A DNA stretch of 63,124 bases, filler included, from Globobulimina sp. (taxonomy: Eukaryota), in the NCBI GenBank assembly GCA_003354225.1. It is 48 parts of 48 records of this genome, joined end to end, with 100 filler letters (N's around TTAATTAATTAA, not from the genome) between each part and the next. Parts side by side here need not be neighbours in the genome. Positions count along the whole stretch, not along the records: positions 31,627 to 32,843 come from PIVH01020767.1; 47 more parts are not named here. The stretch is one strand, 5' to 3'. The translations under genes and the position numbers were made by a program. Shown one piece after another: positions 2,637-44,696 of this stretch (the first letter of the stretch is position 1; every line of letters begins with the position of its first letter). Below the pieces are notes generated by a model, which saw only the letters and a program-made list of their open reading frames with translations, searched no databases and was not told the DNA's origin.

Positions 2637-3854
2637 TGGTCCAATCTGTTTCGTAAATCAATGATAAATTCAACAGCTACTTCGTCATCGTCAATATCAA
2701 CTACAATAAGCCCATTCGACGTAGTTTTGATCCGTACCGCATCAAATCCTTTCAAACTCGCCACTTGACTCTCATCCTCAAACACCACCTTATCCCGCTT
2801 GATCACTCCATTGCCAGTGGGGTCAATAAAAAATAGCCACAATGTATTGTTGAAACACTCCGGGTCCGGTATCCCATTGGCATCCCAAGCTTGCGTAGGT
2901 GCCACGAATATATCTGCAGACTGCTCCGTGCCCGCTGCATGATACATAATGGCAGTCCGCAAACTGCACCACGACGCTATAAATTCCACTTGATTTAAGG
3001 GTGCTATATACGTCGTATGTCGGTCTGCAAACATTGACATATCAAAGAAATCAGAATATTGCGGTGCAAATTCCTCCACAATTGGATCGGGATAACCTGC
3101 CCAGAAAAGAAACATCGCCTTCGATATGCTCGTATTGTATTGCTCCGAGAAAAGAACCGCCAGCGCGGATAAAGGACCGTCAAATGGATACGGGCCATAC
3201 GGCGGAGAAATAGGCTCCTCCGTCGTGTACGCGTCAGAAGCCATAATCTCTGGAACAATGCCAAAATCATTCATATCCGCACTGGTTAACGTTGGGCAAT
3301 AATCAAAGAAATAAGAAATTTGAAACATACTATCATAGGTAAATGCGGCGCAGTTATCCGATTGTAATGTACAATACGTTTTGGATAAATCTTTTTGTGT
3401 CTCTGCGTCGTACTCACCATCCAACAGAGTCCAGGGAATGGCGAAAATTAAATTTGCTTTTTTTGTTGCAGCTAATGAAGTGGCCCAATCGTTGGGATAT
3501 GAGAACAACGACGATACCACACCAGCAGCGAAGGCTACATTTTCCGCCAAACCTGCAGTAACTGCCTCCGTCACAAAATCACAAATGGTTTGTTCCTGCA
3601 CGTTATCCCATGTCGCCGGCGCCATCGGCTTACATTCCACCAAAGGAGTTTGCCACTGTGCTTGTGATGAATTGTATGGATTCAACATACAGGCTCTGCG
3701 CGCATACCATATATTACCAGCGTTTACTGGATCGCAGGTATCGTCAGATTCGGCTTGCAATGTAGAACTAATTTGTGTGATGGTAAATGCGTCCAAATTG
3801 GCTGGATTCGCAGAGTTGACAAAACCGCCTTGGATTTTATATACAGAATGCACG
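2637..3854 (-). CDS. Hypothetical acidic, Cys-containing, probably extracellular protein (partial at both ends)
   Basis: Open frame across the whole contig; GC-richer than neighbouring contigs; no family recognised. Confidence 0.55.
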
Positions 3855-10544: not shown

Positions 10545-11762
10545 TTTATTGTCTGAATTGTCATTGGCAATCGAAGTTGGTCTGGTTTTCAGCGCGTCCT
10601 TTCAAGAGTTACCATCCAAAATTAAGCTAATTTCAGTGATAAGAAACAATCCGCACATAGGTACTGTATCATTTATTCTTTTTTAAATTCGATTTACATA
10701 AATATGTGTATTATATACAGGCAATGTATTGACAGAGTTACATGAATATGCGACAGAAATAAATAACGAATGGATGGAAATTCATGAGAAATACCCCGAG
10801 GTTTACACTGCGATTCAGACAAAGCATGCAGTTCAAACCGTGATTCATGACGAAAGACACGACATTTTAAAGTTATATAATGTGGGTGTTTTAGATGAAT
10901 CTGAGAAGCAAAGAATGACTAAATTGTTATTACAAACACAGCATAATATTTATTTCAGTGCGTTTTATTATGTCACCAGCATTTATGGAACAAGTTTCTC
11001 TCAAAAACAAACATTATTATCGGTACTATTTATGACAAAATTGAATAAAGATTGTTATGAGCAAGTTATAGAAAGTTTATTTGATAAAATTGAATTAAAA
11101 AAATGGCAGCAAGGACAGTACATTGTATCCACACATTCACGGAACGCGGATGGAATTTATATTGTTGTGTCAGGCCGCTGTGCATTGTTAGAATGTGGCC
11201 AGTTTAGTATAAATATAACAAGATCGGAGCAGGAGGACGATGAGGACATTGTGGATAAAAAACATCCGTTATTGGCAGGAGGTGACGGTGGAGCTGCTGC
11301 AGGCAATCAACATGAAATGTACTTAGGTCGCGGAAGTATTATTGGTGGATTCGAATATTTGGCAGGATTGAAATATTTAAATCCGTGTGTTGCGAAAACA
11401 GATGTTATTGCATATTTTATTGATAATGACACTTTGTCTGATTTATTGAATGAAGAGCAAGCGGCTTATCAATGTTTGTGGAAACAATGTGCGACCAATT
11501 TAATATTAGCAATGTATCCAAAGAATGATGAATCTTTTTTTAGGCAATATAGCAAAACACAAATAAATAATATGTGTCAAAAATCGCAGTTTATTTCATT
11601 CGATAATGATGATGTAAACAAAAGGAAGTTATTATTGAATAATTTTGAGAATATGGCATTGATATTATATGGGAAATGTTACTACGATGTTGATATTGAT
11701 AATGGTACGGACGAGAATAATAATAACTTATTGACAACTAAAACAACACAAAGATATAATGA
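10545..11762 (+). CDS. SOS1/SLC9C-like Na+/H+ exchanger cytosolic region with a cyclic-nucleotide-binding-like domain (partial); intron 10661-10720
   Basis: YPEVYTAIQTKHAVQTVI...LYNVGVLDESEKQRM matches the SOS1 helical region; GIYIVVSG...LGRGSIIG...VAKTDV is a CNBD pattern. Confidence 0.7.
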
Positions 11763-30209: not shown

Positions 30210-31814
30210 NNNNNNNNNNNNNNNNNNNNNNNNNNNNNNNNNNNNNNNNNNNNTTAATTAATTAANNNNNNNNNNNNNNNNNNNNNNNNNNNNNNNNNNN
30301 NNNNNNNNNTTTTGTGCATGCCACGTTTAGATAGATAAAAAAATGAAAAATACTTTTCGAACTGACTGTAGGTGTTCGAAAAGTTTTTTTACAAATTCAG
30401 TACATTCGTCTTTGAAGTGTTGCGGAACAAGTGTATACTTGCTCCTCTATGCGGTCCTACTAACCCTTGCAATCTGAGTGACTGCGCCTCCAAGATGGTT
30501 CCGCAAAACATCACATTGCCGATCCGCAAAAAAACCGCCCAACACCACTACCATTTGTTCATCAAGTCATCGCTATTCGTAAATTATATATGTGCCAATT
30601 ATGTTTGATGATAGAACCCCACATTTAAATGCAACAAAACAATCTATAAATGATATATACGTGATAATATGGACTGCATTAATAACTCAATTGTAACAAG
30701 CGACTATGAAGCAATGGCAATGTAAAATGGTGGACATTCGCCTCAAATAGTAAAATGCAAATATTTAAAATAAAAAAGATTCTGTTTTGCAGCTGCATAT
30801 GACATTTTGTTCAAAATGTCCTACGTTAATTCATACTCGCTTAAATTAGAAATAAAAATATTACACAGTGCAGACAGCAAATATACAAATTATTGACTAT
30901 AGTTTTGAACATTAGAAAAGTTAAAATTTGAAAATATTCAAGAAGCAGATAATCTATGGATTTGATGTGCAAAAATATAATGCATTCCATGGAATTTATG
31001 GAATTAGACAGGATACAAAACTAAATAATATTTTTGATTGTAACTTTGAATATAATTCTATTTGATTTGTATTATGAGTTGGATGTGTTTAGGGATAATC
31101 ACATGTATATTTTCTATTTATTATATTAAAATAAACCTGTTCATTTTGCTTTTTATTAACTGTCTGTTTGTTTGTTGCTAAAATAAGGAGATTAAAAAGC
31201 AGTGGATGACGGTGCTGAGTTGGATTACGAATTGCGTTATGCTGCTAAACTGAATCTCCTCTCATCAACACACCAATTGCAACTTCGTAATGAATTTATA
31301 AATGTTGTAAATGAGCTTGAAATGAACAAAGATTATGTTATGCTGACCATGCCCGTATGCAATTGACTAATGCTAAATAACTTTTTTCTAAGTACTAATA
31401 CTTAAATCTTTGAAAAACACTTAGTGAATTGCATGCAAGGAGCGTGGATTAATTAAAAGTACTCATTCCACTCCTCCCTTGACATGAATATAAAATCAAA
31501 AAGTCATTTGAAAAATATCTCTTGCANNNNNNNNNNNNNNNNNNNNNNNNNNNNNNNNNNNNNNNNNNNNTTAATTAATTAANNNNNNNNNNNNNNNNNN
31601 NNNNNNNNNNNNNNNNNNNNNNNNNNCAGTACAGCTAGCGTTACGACAGTGTAATCATAAAACGTTCCCATGTTCATACACAGTGAGGTTTTTTTTACTT
31701 GAAAATTAATGAAAATGATTAATTTGAATAGTAACGTTAAACTATAGCCATAGCGAAAAATGAATAACAAGGAAAATAGACAAATTTACACGAATCGGAG
31801 AGATATTTATGGAA

Positions 31815-32842
31815 TCATTTAAATGCTTTGACAATTTTTTTTTGATTATCATCATATATTCGAATTCCATTCTTGCCGAAATTCTTGGCTTCATACAATC
31901 CCTTATCAGCAAATGACAACCAATCTTGTGCTTTTTTAAAATTACTCCCTGGCGACGGATATCGATCAAGTCCCATACAACACATTCCAACCGATATGTT
32001 TACATCTAAACTATTTATTTCTTTGTTAAATGATTTATAAAACAACTCTTGTTTATGTATCGGTGTTCGTCCGTCTTGCTCGGTAACTATGGCAAATTCA
32101 TCGCCGCCTTGACGGAAACACCAACAACGCTCAATTCCCAACTGTTCCTCTTTGAATTCATCGCCTGTTTTATGTTCGAAATGCCTTAATATGTTACCCA
32201 TTGCTAGTAATTTCTGGTCCGCACCGTCATGGCCTAATTTCTCATTCAATGTCTTAACGTATATCATGTTGCGTATATTGCCAATATAATGTTTGTACAT
32301 AATATCCAGAAACAGACACATATATTCTGTGCCAGCGTGTTTTTAGAATTTAAATATACAGAATTACAGCACCTAAAATAATAAAAACGCGTACGCAGTA
32401 ATTATATATTTGCTGTTTCTGAATATATGTACAAGACAAACATAAAAAATGGTATAACTACCTTAAACCCATCGATATCGAAGACATACAACGAATATCT
32501 AAATTTATTCTTATCCACAGATATCTCATTTAGCAAATGAACCAACGAATTTTTATTCTTTAAACCCGTTAATAAATCTATCGCAATTTGCGGGTTGGCC
32601 TTTAAAGTTCGAATTACTCTCTGTTGGATCTGCCTATTTCTTTCCATGTCTTTCTGCACAGATTCCGGATTATGTGTGGTTCCACACTTTTGACAACATA
32701 AATATTTCGAGAAAGTTTCATCGTAATTATCGATATTAAATACTTTGTCATAATTCATACAAGATTCACATTCATAAACATTTCCTGTGTTGGCGCCACA
32801 TCCATAACATTTGTCATCATACCATTTTTGACCAAAATAGCT
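31815..32842 (-). CDS. ZZ-like zinc finger + GGDEF diguanylate cyclase (5'-partial); exons 32842-32462 and 32252-31815, intron 32253-32461
   Basis: Splicing gives DLLTGLKNK...VFDIDGFK|TLNEKLGHDGAD...FRQGGDEFAIV...ISVG...ADKGLYEAKNFGKN, the full GGDEF consensus. Donor AAG|GTAGTT, acceptor TTAAG|ACA, phase 0. Confidence 0.92.
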
Positions 32843-33451
32843 CNNNNNNNNNNNNNNNNNNNNNNNNNNNNNNNNNNNNNNNNNNNNTTAATTAATTAAN
32901 NNNNNNNNNNNNNNNNNNNNNNNNNNNNNNNNNNNNNNNNNNNTTCGCCTAGTTTTGGAAGGAATCCCGTCATTTAAAAAGCTGCTTAATTTAAACATTG
33001 ATGATAAACCATTTACAAACATATGCAAATGTATGACACGATCATACTACACACTTTCGAATTTTTCATGAACAAAAATACACAATAATAATATAACAGA
33101 ATATTCTGGCAAATTGATGCAACTCATAAGTTAATATCGAAATCCAGATTGATAAATTGGTTGAATCAAAAAAACATGCCATAAAACAAAACAAACGAAA
33201 ATAAAACAACACAAAAAAGACAAAACAAAACAAGCAAATGCAACACAAACCGTTCATTTTATCGTTGGTCAATGTTTGGTTGTAGCTACTTGCAAAATAA
33301 ATTTAAAACACGTAAGACAGAAAAAAGCAAAATAGAATAAGACAGAAAAAACCAACAAAATAAAACACGGAAAAAAATTATCCTTGCACAAACACAAAAA
33401 TTCACATCAACCAAATATAATATATAATACAAACCTGTAGGGCTATCGCCA

Positions 33452-34260: not shown

Positions 34261-35477
34261 ATGAGTAAAAATAATAACATTGACGATAAACAAAACGAAT
34301 TGATTAATAAATTAAAACAATTTAATCAGATAAATCCCGACACAGCGCAATTAAATCGAGAATGTAAACAAATTATAAATGAAATCGATCAAATGTATGA
34401 AAATGAAAAAGTAAAGAAAATTAAAAAAGAGATAGAAGCAATAAACACATCCGTCGTAAATAATGATCATAAATATTGGCGAGCAATGAAAGCAAAACAA
34501 AAAGACGATGGAGGCGTAATGATTAAAAATCAACATTATTACAATTCGGCAATCAAAGCACAGCAAATATATGAAGATATAGCTTTGATGTACAGTAAAA
34601 ATAATATATTGGAAGAAAAGTGGGAAAAATATTACTCCGAAGAAGACGAATTAATCCAATACCAAAATCAAGTAAAATATCACAATCAAATAAGATTCCA
34701 TTGGCAAGAAATAATAGAGTTTGTAACAAAATATAAGAAAAAAAAGAAAGTAAACAAATCGAGCGGATTAGATATAATCAATTGGAATATATCCAAATTA
34801 TTAGATGATGATTGTGATATAACTAAGTTATATTTGATATTGAACCACGGAGAAATCCCAAATAAAATGAAATTGTCAAAATTAGTGACATTAAAAAAGA
34901 AAGAATTTACTTATCGATGTATCAGAGCAATTGGAAAAGACAGATCATTAATTGAGGCATTTATCACAGATATTGAGAATAGCGGCAAAGAGATTGTTCA
35001 AGTACAACACTGTGAGAAAGGAACAACAGTTCAATTATTAGCATTTATTTTAACAATTGAAATAAATGTAGAATTATTAAAACCAATTGCAATCGGATTA
35101 GTAGATTTAGACAAAGCATATGATAATGCAATACCAAAAGTCATTCGTTGTCAATTCAAATACCAACAAACAGGAATCGATCAAAGAATCTATAAAATAA
35201 AAAAGAACATTGAAAATAATAATCATTTATTAGTACATGTCAATAAGAAACAAGTCGGTTGTACACAACAAGAATGCGGATTAAGCCAAGGAGGTACAAT
35301 GTCATTGCCCGATTTTTCCAATACAACAAATCCAGCGATAAAAAGCGGTGAACAAAAATTAAAGGGCGCGATAATACCATTAAAACCAAGCGAAAATGTA
35401 ATAAATCCGCAAACATATAATATGTCTCAATTGGAACAACAACAAAATCAACAACAAACGCAAAATGACCAGTGGCA
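34261..35477 (+). mobile_element. Divergent non-LTR retrotransposon reverse transcriptase (partial)
   Basis: IPNKMKLSKLVTLKK, TYRCI (cf. YRPI), LVDLDKAYD (cf. DLxKAFD), GLSQGGTMS (cf. GVxQGxxLSP); strongly A-rich coding strand. Confidence 0.75.
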
Positions 35478-43479: not shown

Positions 43480-44696
43480 TGAAGATGGCAAACATAATAA
43501 AAAATATGGCGCACCGAATGTGGATATTAGAGAAAAAAATATTGATAAGTATTTTAAAAAAAAAAAGAAATCAAAGCGTTCACCTTTAAATGGTGGAAAT
43601 TTGGAATTAATTCGGTCGCACAATGTTATTAAAGAAGGATTACATTCATTTGATTGTGATAAAAGACACAATCCACAACATTTGCGTTATAAAATTAGAT
43701 TATGGTCATTCAAATCAACATCAATTCAATGTAATGGATTAGTTGCGATGGTACATATTATTCCTGGATTAATATCAAAAATGTCAAGAATGTGTTTAAA
43801 TGGATGCGACAGAAGCTGGCTGGTTAAATGTTTGCGTACAGCCATTGGTATCAATGAAAATAAAGCGATCTATATATATTTATTGAAAATAGCAAATGAT
43901 TCATTATTTAAAACAAATTATAAACAGGATATGTCCACTGATAAATGGAAAGAGTTATTATCGTTTATTTTTGATTTAAAAGATATACAAAAACATAATG
44001 ATGTATGGCGAGCAGCATTTAATCAAACTGCGGAATTAGACACGTTTGATTTGCAGGATTTATCTCAATATCAAAATTTATTACAGATATTGAATGAAAA
44101 TAATATTATATTTGATATGGATTTGCTTAAGAAAACAAATCAAAATATTAATAATTATATTTATGATGATAATTACAAAAAATTAGCAAAATCATTGACA
44201 AAAATTGTAGAAACAGATGATATCAGCAAAGAAACGTTTTTATTATCGGACTTTAATGATAAAATGCATCTTATTCATATAACATTGTTTAATGACAGAA
44301 TTTCGTATGGATATTACACAGAATTTATGTGTGATAAAACTATTAAAAAGGAACGGGCGCCGGAGGCAATGATTATATCTCAATTAGTTTTAGCGGGAAT
44401 GGCATTTAGTATGGGTTTCAGCGTTGAAAAACAAAAAATCCATCAAATTATGAATGATATTCAAGGTTTATGCAAAGCAATGGAAGTTGGCAGTGATGAA
44501 TATTTAAAAATCATCTGTTTTTACTTGAACAATAATGAAGAGAATCGATTAATATATACACATAATATAAACGATATAAGTGATGTTAAATTATTATTAA
44601 ACAATGAGAGAAATATTAATTATTTGAATGATATTGCAAGAACATTAATTAATGGTAAATTAACAAATTTATTTAATGCAACAATCAGTAATGCAT
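43480..44696 (+). CDS. Hypothetical protein (partial at both ends)
   Basis: Open frame across the contig; no motif recognised. Confidence 0.55.

Follow-up and report, generated by a model that had tools for sequence, protein, structure and literature searches.

Cyclic diguanosine monophosphate (c-di-GMP) is treated as a bacterial messenger, and the only example worked out in a eukaryote is the dgcA gene, present singly in dictyostelids. DgcA is described as the one characterised eukaryotic diguanylate cyclase (PMC4686194, PMC5055082, PMC5113120) and dictyostelid genomes are described as carrying single dgcA genes (PMC4686194), and nucleotides of the c-di-GMP type are said to have been considered as brought into eukaryotes only occasionally (PMC13375341). 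Here we describe a GGDEF gene on contig PIVH01020767.1 of the Globobulimina sp. assembly GCA_003354225.1, which was studied within a window (the whole stretch of DNA analysed, 63124 bases) made up of 48 unlinked, size-sorted contigs of 1216-1218 nucleotides (nt) each, joined by 47 N/TTAATTAATTAA linkers. Our reading of this locus, to which we give a probability of roughly 0.7, is that it is a nuclear, spliced and expressed gene of a foraminiferan (or of a very close relative of one), most likely working as a diguanylate cyclase.

The bacterial GGDEF cyclases PleD, WspR, DosC and DgcZ (YdeH), all of the PF00990 type, are the closest described systems. The Globobulimina gene has the same domain at full length (profile positions 2-160), with the D-x-D, K, N, G-H, D, R-x-GGDEF and A-K-x-x-G-K/R-N positions, and a helical segment leads into the domain as it does in the bacterial enzymes. 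DgcZ, which is regulated by zinc, likewise pairs a zinc-binding domain with GGDEF. Unlike the bacterial cyclases, however, this is a eukaryotic gene with a spliceosomal-type intron that lies on a long separate branch, it has extra residues before FRQGGDEF and lacks the RxxD motif, and its N-terminal Cys-rich module has no Pfam kin. The partner domains found in its family are PH, SPRY, ankyrin and ubiquitin-conjugating (E2) domains, whereas those of bacterial GGDEF proteins are PAS, GAF, REC and EAL. In Dictyostelium, too, a GGDEF enzyme of prokaryotic type (DgcA) is encoded by a nuclear gene, but the foraminiferal genes form a large family, with at least 10 named members in Bolivina argentea and varied fusions. 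The cGAS/CD-NTase systems (cGAS-STING, and CBASS with its E1/E2 partners) offer an analogy only, that of a cyclic-dinucleotide synthase family that was expanded and joined to E2, SPRY and ankyrin modules; the GGDEF domain has a palm fold, in contrast to the Pol-beta-like nucleotidyltransferase fold of cGAS and the CD-NTases.

The GGDEF gene is the sole feature on its own 1217-nt contig (window positions 31627-32843), where it lies on the minus strand with the following parts:

32462-32842 (feature to 32843), minus strand: exon 1, 127 codons, with its 5' end beyond the contig; it ends with YSLYVFDIDGFK (...FDIDGFK)
32462-32843, minus strand: content of exon 1, namely the Cys-rich module, a helix that serves as linker and the opening third of the GGDEF domain
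32684-32809, minus strand: Cys-rich module, CxxC-x9-CxxC-x20-CCxxC, C12-C53 of the exon 1 product, probably zinc-binding
32253-32461, minus strand: intron, 209 nt, phase 0, GT..AG (GTAGTT...GTTAAG), guanine-plus-cytosine (GC) content 0.287
31818-32252, minus strand: coding part of exon 2, 145 codons; it starts with TLNEKLGHDGAD, followed by RQGGDEF, ADKGLYEAKNFGKNG and a short tail
32094-32114, minus strand: active-site motif R-Q-G-G-D-E-F, by direct reading
31815-31817, minus strand: stop codon TGA, by direct reading
31719-31814, minus strand: probable 3' untranslated region (UTR), placed from the ends of the transcript-like contigs of sequencing runs X1 and X7, which as contigs cannot prove an RNA end

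Joined, the two exons encode 272 amino acids (aa), with FDIDGFK|TLNEKLGHDGAD at the junction. The original prediction had proposed a check against the Pfam GGDEF profile (PF00990) on the spliced product; with each exon scored separately rather than on the joined product, this check was passed by exon 2, where residues 2-128 match profile positions 46-160 (33.1 bits, E 5.8e-8, cut-off 23.8), but not by exon 1 alone, where residues 87-127 match positions 2-44 below the cut-off (12.3 bits, E 0.15). Since the first match ends at profile position 44 and the second resumes at 46, the two pieces abut in the GGDEF profile. The exon products are also colinear with intact relatives in the alignment, reading FK|TLN where the relatives read FKAIN or FKQLN, and the cut-off was passed by all 10 of the top relatives scanned. 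Judged from P0003, the best-matching relative, which has about 94 residues ahead of the point where exon 1 starts, the missing 5' end amounts to about 94 codons (282 nt). A membrane-like stretch of 19 residues was absent from the nine sequences checked (highest hydropathy 1.58). The encoded protein is most likely soluble and about 365 aa long, with a predicted helical N-terminal region that lies beyond the contig, the Cys-rich module, the linker helix and a complete GGDEF domain.

The residues needed for catalysis were compared across the 23 members of the clade to which this gene belongs. In the D-x-D of FDIDGFK, with which exon 1 closes, both Asp are retained by 21 of the 23 members, the other two rows being gaps in partial sequences, and the Lys of D-x-D-x-F-K is kept in 19, with Arg in two more. 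At the start of exon 2, in the N-x-x-x-G-H-x-x-G/A-D motif (TLNEKLGHDGAD), the Asn is kept in 22/23, the His in 21/23 and the Asp of GAD in 21/23. The Arg ahead of the GGDEF motif is found in 21 members, G-G-D-E in every one, and the Lys of A-K in 21. The window gene holds the commonest residue at each catalytic position examined, and the GGDEF residues that the original prediction had listed are all present in it and conserved across the family. By analogy with PleD and WspR, we take the Asp of D-x-D, on the first strand, to be metal-binding and the Asn and Asp to be guanine-recognising, and we assume the phosphate role in the same way. When the family profile was compared with solved structures it matched DosC (E 1.9e-21) as well as WspR, PleD and DgcZ, and the 52 best chains (E<=0.002) were all GGDEF proteins. 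Taken from its residues, the gene product is probably an active diguanylate cyclase. The RxxD motif, at positions -9 to -6, is the allosteric product-inhibition site (I-site) found five residues before the GGDEF motif, typical of these enzymes though not obligatory. It occurs in 0/23 family members versus 15/40 other (bacterial) rows, and the window gene reads IERC at this place.

The alternative that survives best, though we regard it as unlikely, is that this is indeed a spliced eukaryotic gene but that its GGDEF domain is not a c-di-GMP synthase, and instead makes another cyclic dinucleotide or linear pppGpG, or acts as a GTP-binding or regulatory module. The very long branch of the family, the insertion before the active-site strand and the absence of the I-site from 23/23 members would all suit such a change of function, as would the weak match of three of 15 members to the Cas10 palm profile; nor are partner enzymes or receptors known, although no search for EAL, HD-GYP, PilZ or STING was made. 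Degenerate or regulatory GGDEF domains usually lose catalytic positions, however, and here the presumed guanine-recognising Asn and Asp, the GGDE and the metal-binding Asp persist at the high counts given above, which argues for a diguanylate cyclase.

The evidence for splicing comes from the reading frame and from public sequencing runs. The intron lies between two codons, those of K and T, within the D-x-D-x-F-K / N-x-x-G-H motif, with GT at 32461-32460 and AG at 32254-32253. Reading through it leads to a stop after 20 codons, and only the 209-nt choice gives all 145 residues; the original prediction had found that three alternative AG acceptors run into stops, and the same holds for all four AG sites inside the intron, with stops after 2-22 codons. 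Ten runs are listed for the contig, of which eight, from four studies, contain part of it; runs X1-X5 are of unrecorded kind, and X6-X8 are RNA by guess only. We aligned X1, X4, X6 and X7, which represent four studies and three organism labels, to the contig. X1, X4 and X7 each have one contig in which 32252 is followed directly by 32462, so that exactly 209 nt (32253-32461) are omitted; the skipped stretch is bounded by CT..AC on the plus strand, equivalent to GT..AG on the gene strand. In X6, two records have loose ends at 32462 that carry the first 12 letters of exon 2. Depth was zero over 32283-32446 (four bins) in all four runs, and the junction has five ambiguous letters, TTAAG on either side. 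The joining of two open reading frame (ORF) pieces through a 209-nt GT-AG intron inside the FDIDGFK motif, as first proposed, is therefore confirmed in its coordinates, the 209 nt being missing from contigs of four out of four runs. X1 and X7, which carry different organism labels, supply contigs of 1207 and 1188 nt respectively; both contigs extend about 290 nt past 32843, and they end at 31719 (X1) and 31740 (X7), about 75-96 nt beyond the stop codon. Since these ends and the size of about 1.2 kb fit a complete mRNA, the runs are presumably RNA. Thus the identification of the 209-nt insert as a spliceosomal-type intron is supported by its GT..AG bounds and by its exact removal, which restores the frame.

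An imperfect inverted repeat (69% over 145 nt) occupies the central part of the intron (32293-32434), and the predicted fold of the entire intron is a single long hairpin (-50.9 kcal/mol, z -3.36; one of 200 shuffles folds as well). Such a hairpin would draw the splice sites together and could be a splicing aid, or else the remnant of a palindromic element. The repeat and its fold, the TTAAG on both sides, which can be read as a target-site duplication, and the fact that the kinds of run are not on record would also be compatible with a mobile-element insertion or an indel polymorphism, the runs then being DNA of strains without the insert. We consider this very unlikely. The insert has no terminal inverted repeats, a second copy was not found among the 48 contigs (58 kb only, which gives low power), and AG|GT together with the closing AG already explain two of the five shared letters. 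In addition, the insert-free contigs are of mRNA-like length and end alike in two organisms, the insert, if retained, would cut short a gene otherwise subject to purifying selection, and, as a hint only, the relative P0016 starts (MLVQ|AIN) as expected of an intron at the same site. An element turned intron, or 'introner', would fit both the intron and the mobile-element account.

Other relatives provide observations on introns in the family. The ORF of P0016, on an 827-nt contig, starts with MLVQ and then AINTALTHDVAD (AINTALTHD), as if leaving an intron that ends in ...CAG and occupies the same site; this hints that the intron may predate the expansion of the family. Five short relatives (P0009, P0020, P0024, P0025 and P0049) start abruptly inside the GGDEF domain, which suggests further introns in the paralogues.

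The GGDEF reading frame is under purifying selection: the 34 coding differences between X6/X7 and the window include 29 synonymous ones, and 28 of the 34 are at third codon positions. Excluded from this count are three 3' UTR rows and a further row, 32220, that occurs in X4 only and by direct reading is also a synonymous third-position difference. The GC content at third codon positions (GC3) is 0.32-0.34 in the exons and 0.21-0.31 in 8/10 other long window ORFs, and in this respect the gene is host-like.

Exon 2 was searched exhaustively with phmmer against 1.84 billion representatives. Only 73 matches reached E<=1e-3; 12 reached E<=1e-10, and E<=1e-30 was reached by none. The best match was P0003 (361 aa, 51% identity), and over the domain P0017 and P0003 are closest to the window gene (53-54% identity). 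Relatives in foraminifera, which the original prediction had suggested looking for, make up 12 of the 30 matches that were looked up (10 from Bolivina argentea, one from Elphidium margaritaceum and one from Nonionella stella, all from transcriptome sets); four others have bacterial or metagenome annotation names and 14 are without a name. No amoebozoan name was found among these 30 of the 73 matches. The bacterial-type matches to exon 2 reach E about 1e-6 at best. P0018 (4295 aa) was rejected as a family member, as it is a bacterial repeat protein matched by chance.

A phylogeny against bacterial domains had likewise been proposed, and it places the gene in an exclusive foraminiferal clade with a support of 100. 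The first tree, made by a quick method, has 65 rows: the 73 matches minus the very long P0018, P0060 and P0072, minus six rows with fewer than 110 domain residues, plus the window domain. Here 23 rows fall on one side of a branch of 0.81 (SH-aLRT 100), and the other 42 are of bacterial type. The clade holds 12 species-named foraminiferal sequences, P0017 (from EukProt), nine unnamed sequences and the window gene. A metagenome scan returned bacterial-type loci only, the best 80 of 423 being 27-43% identical to P0003 with a median GC of 0.707. A second tree of 143 rows was built by adding 78 bacterial domains that share the word FRQGGDEF, taken from these 80 metagenome loci (two too-short domains were dropped). 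Among 120 bacterial-type domains the 23-row clade was still exclusive, on a branch of 1.17 with a support of 100, and no bacterial sister group emerged in this unrooted tree. No relative was found in the viral collection (0/30 pattern matches). Such an exclusive, long-branched clade is consistent with a single origin and later expansion within foraminifera. In our reading, the foraminiferal GGDEF family would have a single origin and a bacterial ancestry, and the best explanation of its present form is that it has since gained introns, a host-like composition and eukaryotic partner domains.

It might be argued instead that the family belongs to an organism travelling with foraminifera, such as a eukaryotic symbiont, prey or a giant virus. 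Foreign sequence is known in foraminiferal transcriptomes and fragmentary assemblies, and one window contig, with a stromalin domain and a GC3 of 0.68, does look compositionally foreign. We give this explanation only a slight chance, however, because the family is present in three foraminiferal genera as well as in the Globobulimina assembly, its composition follows each host (the Elphidium member is far less rich in AT, N and K), its GC3 is like that of most window ORFs, there are at least 10 paralogues in one species, and the viral collection lacks a relative. The least probable explanation, and a barely credible one, is that a gene from contaminating bacteria was interrupted by an insertion, for although GGDEF is overwhelmingly a bacterial domain, the bacterial-type matches to exon 2 and the FRQGGDEF metagenome loci are as distant as described, the clade holds foraminiferal sequences to the exclusion of bacterial ones, the insert is excised at exact bounds and the paralogues have eukaryotic domain fusions. 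The original prediction of a nuclear gene rather than contamination is supported by the foraminiferal nearest relatives, the removal of the intron, purifying selection and a GC3 like that of 8/10 window ORFs.

Several points nevertheless weigh against a spliced, active cyclase. In the profile alignment there are about 13 extra residues before FRQGGDEF relative to DosC, and exon 2 alone matches no solved chain at E<=0.01; as exon 2 lacks a solved match and the Pfam match of exon 1 is below the cut-off, the domain is divergent. Both the activity and its product are deduced from residues alone, and the word 'spliced' depends on the shape of contigs from runs that we infer to be RNA. Finally, the window differs from X1, X4, X6 and X7 at 32689 (K>E) and 32696 (C>W), both non-synonymous and both in the Cys-rich module, where C>W at 32696 alters the CCxxC pair. 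The window also differs synonymously from X1, X4 and X7 at 32046. At these positions the window copy is the odd one out, perhaps as an allele or a paralogue, or because of errors in the assembly.

Three CxxC pairs ahead of the linker helix are common to all family members, and the six Cys columns are nearly invariant in the alignment. The Cys-rich module had no consistent Pfam match in 15/15 members and no significant match among solved PDB structures. A word-limited search with the Cys-rich region alone found only P0003 and P0017, word-index searches of this kind being too limited to judge whether the family is present outside foraminifera. Some members carry further domains: P0005 adds PH and SPRY, P0013 and P0028 ankyrin, and P0029 a ubiquitin-conjugating E2 domain, while the ankyrin match of P0011 is weak and below the cut-off, and P0004 has an additional Cys-rich C-terminal region. 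These fusions come from transcriptome assemblies and could include chimeras. Public transcriptome sets already contain the family proteins, for which Pfam labels have been precomputed. With its three CxxC pairs, linker helix and W-x-F-R-Q-GGDEF domain, and its place inside the exclusive clade, the window gene agrees with the definition of the family, and these features support its membership of a many-membered GGDEF family that has to date been observed in foraminifera only.

P0003 and P0076, both transcripts of Bolivina argentea, agree completely (100% identity) over their first 69 residues, and P0076 then runs on into IBR (RBR-type ubiquitin ligase) domains. This shared start points to a common 5' exon, alternative splicing or an assembly chimera.

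A possible mechanism is that two GGDEF domains, each with GTP and Mg2+, would dimerise and produce c-di-GMP; for diguanylate cyclases known so far, such pairing of GGDEF domains is established as a requirement. Whether the two domains meet could be decided by the helical N-terminus together with the Cys-rich module and the linker helix, and the PH, SPRY, ankyrin and E2 modules of the paralogues may provide various inputs or direct the enzymes to various places. As the I-site is absent, input and turnover, and not product feedback, would set the limit on output.

Because the window consists of joined, unlinked contigs, the rest of it is not the neighbourhood of the GGDEF gene, and window ORFs that run across the linkers are artefacts. 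Scans of the other contigs found the eukaryotic domains eIF5, cohesin stromalin and cNMP-binding, and Rfam and tRNA scans of the window found nothing relevant. The cyclic-nucleotide-binding domain (PF00027, 28.1 bits) is in an ORF at 10702-11760, which is unlinked to the GGDEF contig but from the same assembly. The stromalin (cohesin SCC3) domain is in an ORF that is open over the whole contig at 39529-40745; its GC3 of 0.68 is unlike that of most other window ORFs (0.21-0.34), and this contig may come from a different organism in the sample. On three other contigs (34261-35477, 43480-44696 and 2637-3854) a single frame of 405 codons is open from end to end with no Pfam match. The first two of these are very rich in N, K and Q, and their ORFs may encode lineage-specific or repeat-element proteins. 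On the GGDEF contig itself, a 1520-nt contig of run X4 covers 31627-31676 and stops at 31676, where adapter letters follow, 43 nt from the X1 end at 31719. It may represent a neighbouring transcript near the 3' end of the GGDEF gene.

A literature search, which left subscription papers and supplements outside its reach, found no report of GGDEF or diguanylate cyclase in foraminifera, nor of diguanylate cyclase in Reticulomyxa. None of the matches listed for c-di-GMP with Rhizaria concerns a rhizarian enzyme, and GGDEF did not occur among the matches listed for papers on foraminiferal genera. Foraminifera are ecologically important protists that live in close contact with bacteria, and a second, independent eukaryotic lineage would show full domestication of the c-di-GMP system by a eukaryote: the foraminiferal GGDEF genes have introns, appear to be transcribed, are under purifying selection, and have multiplied into a family with fusions to eukaryotic signalling domains. 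The finding supplies concrete genes for expression and assay and raises testable questions about receptors and turnover enzymes. More tentatively, and we think this doubtful though possible, foraminifera may run their own intracellular network of c-di-GMP or a related dinucleotide, in which expanded, feedback-free GGDEF cyclases would be gated by a new zinc-finger-like module and wired to PH, SPRY, ankyrin and ubiquitin-conjugating domains. If so, this would be the first eukaryotic c-di-GMP system with many inputs, in contrast to the single secreted morphogen of Dictyostelium, and it could serve innate defence against bacteria that are eaten or harboured, or control of the reticulopodial cytoskeleton.

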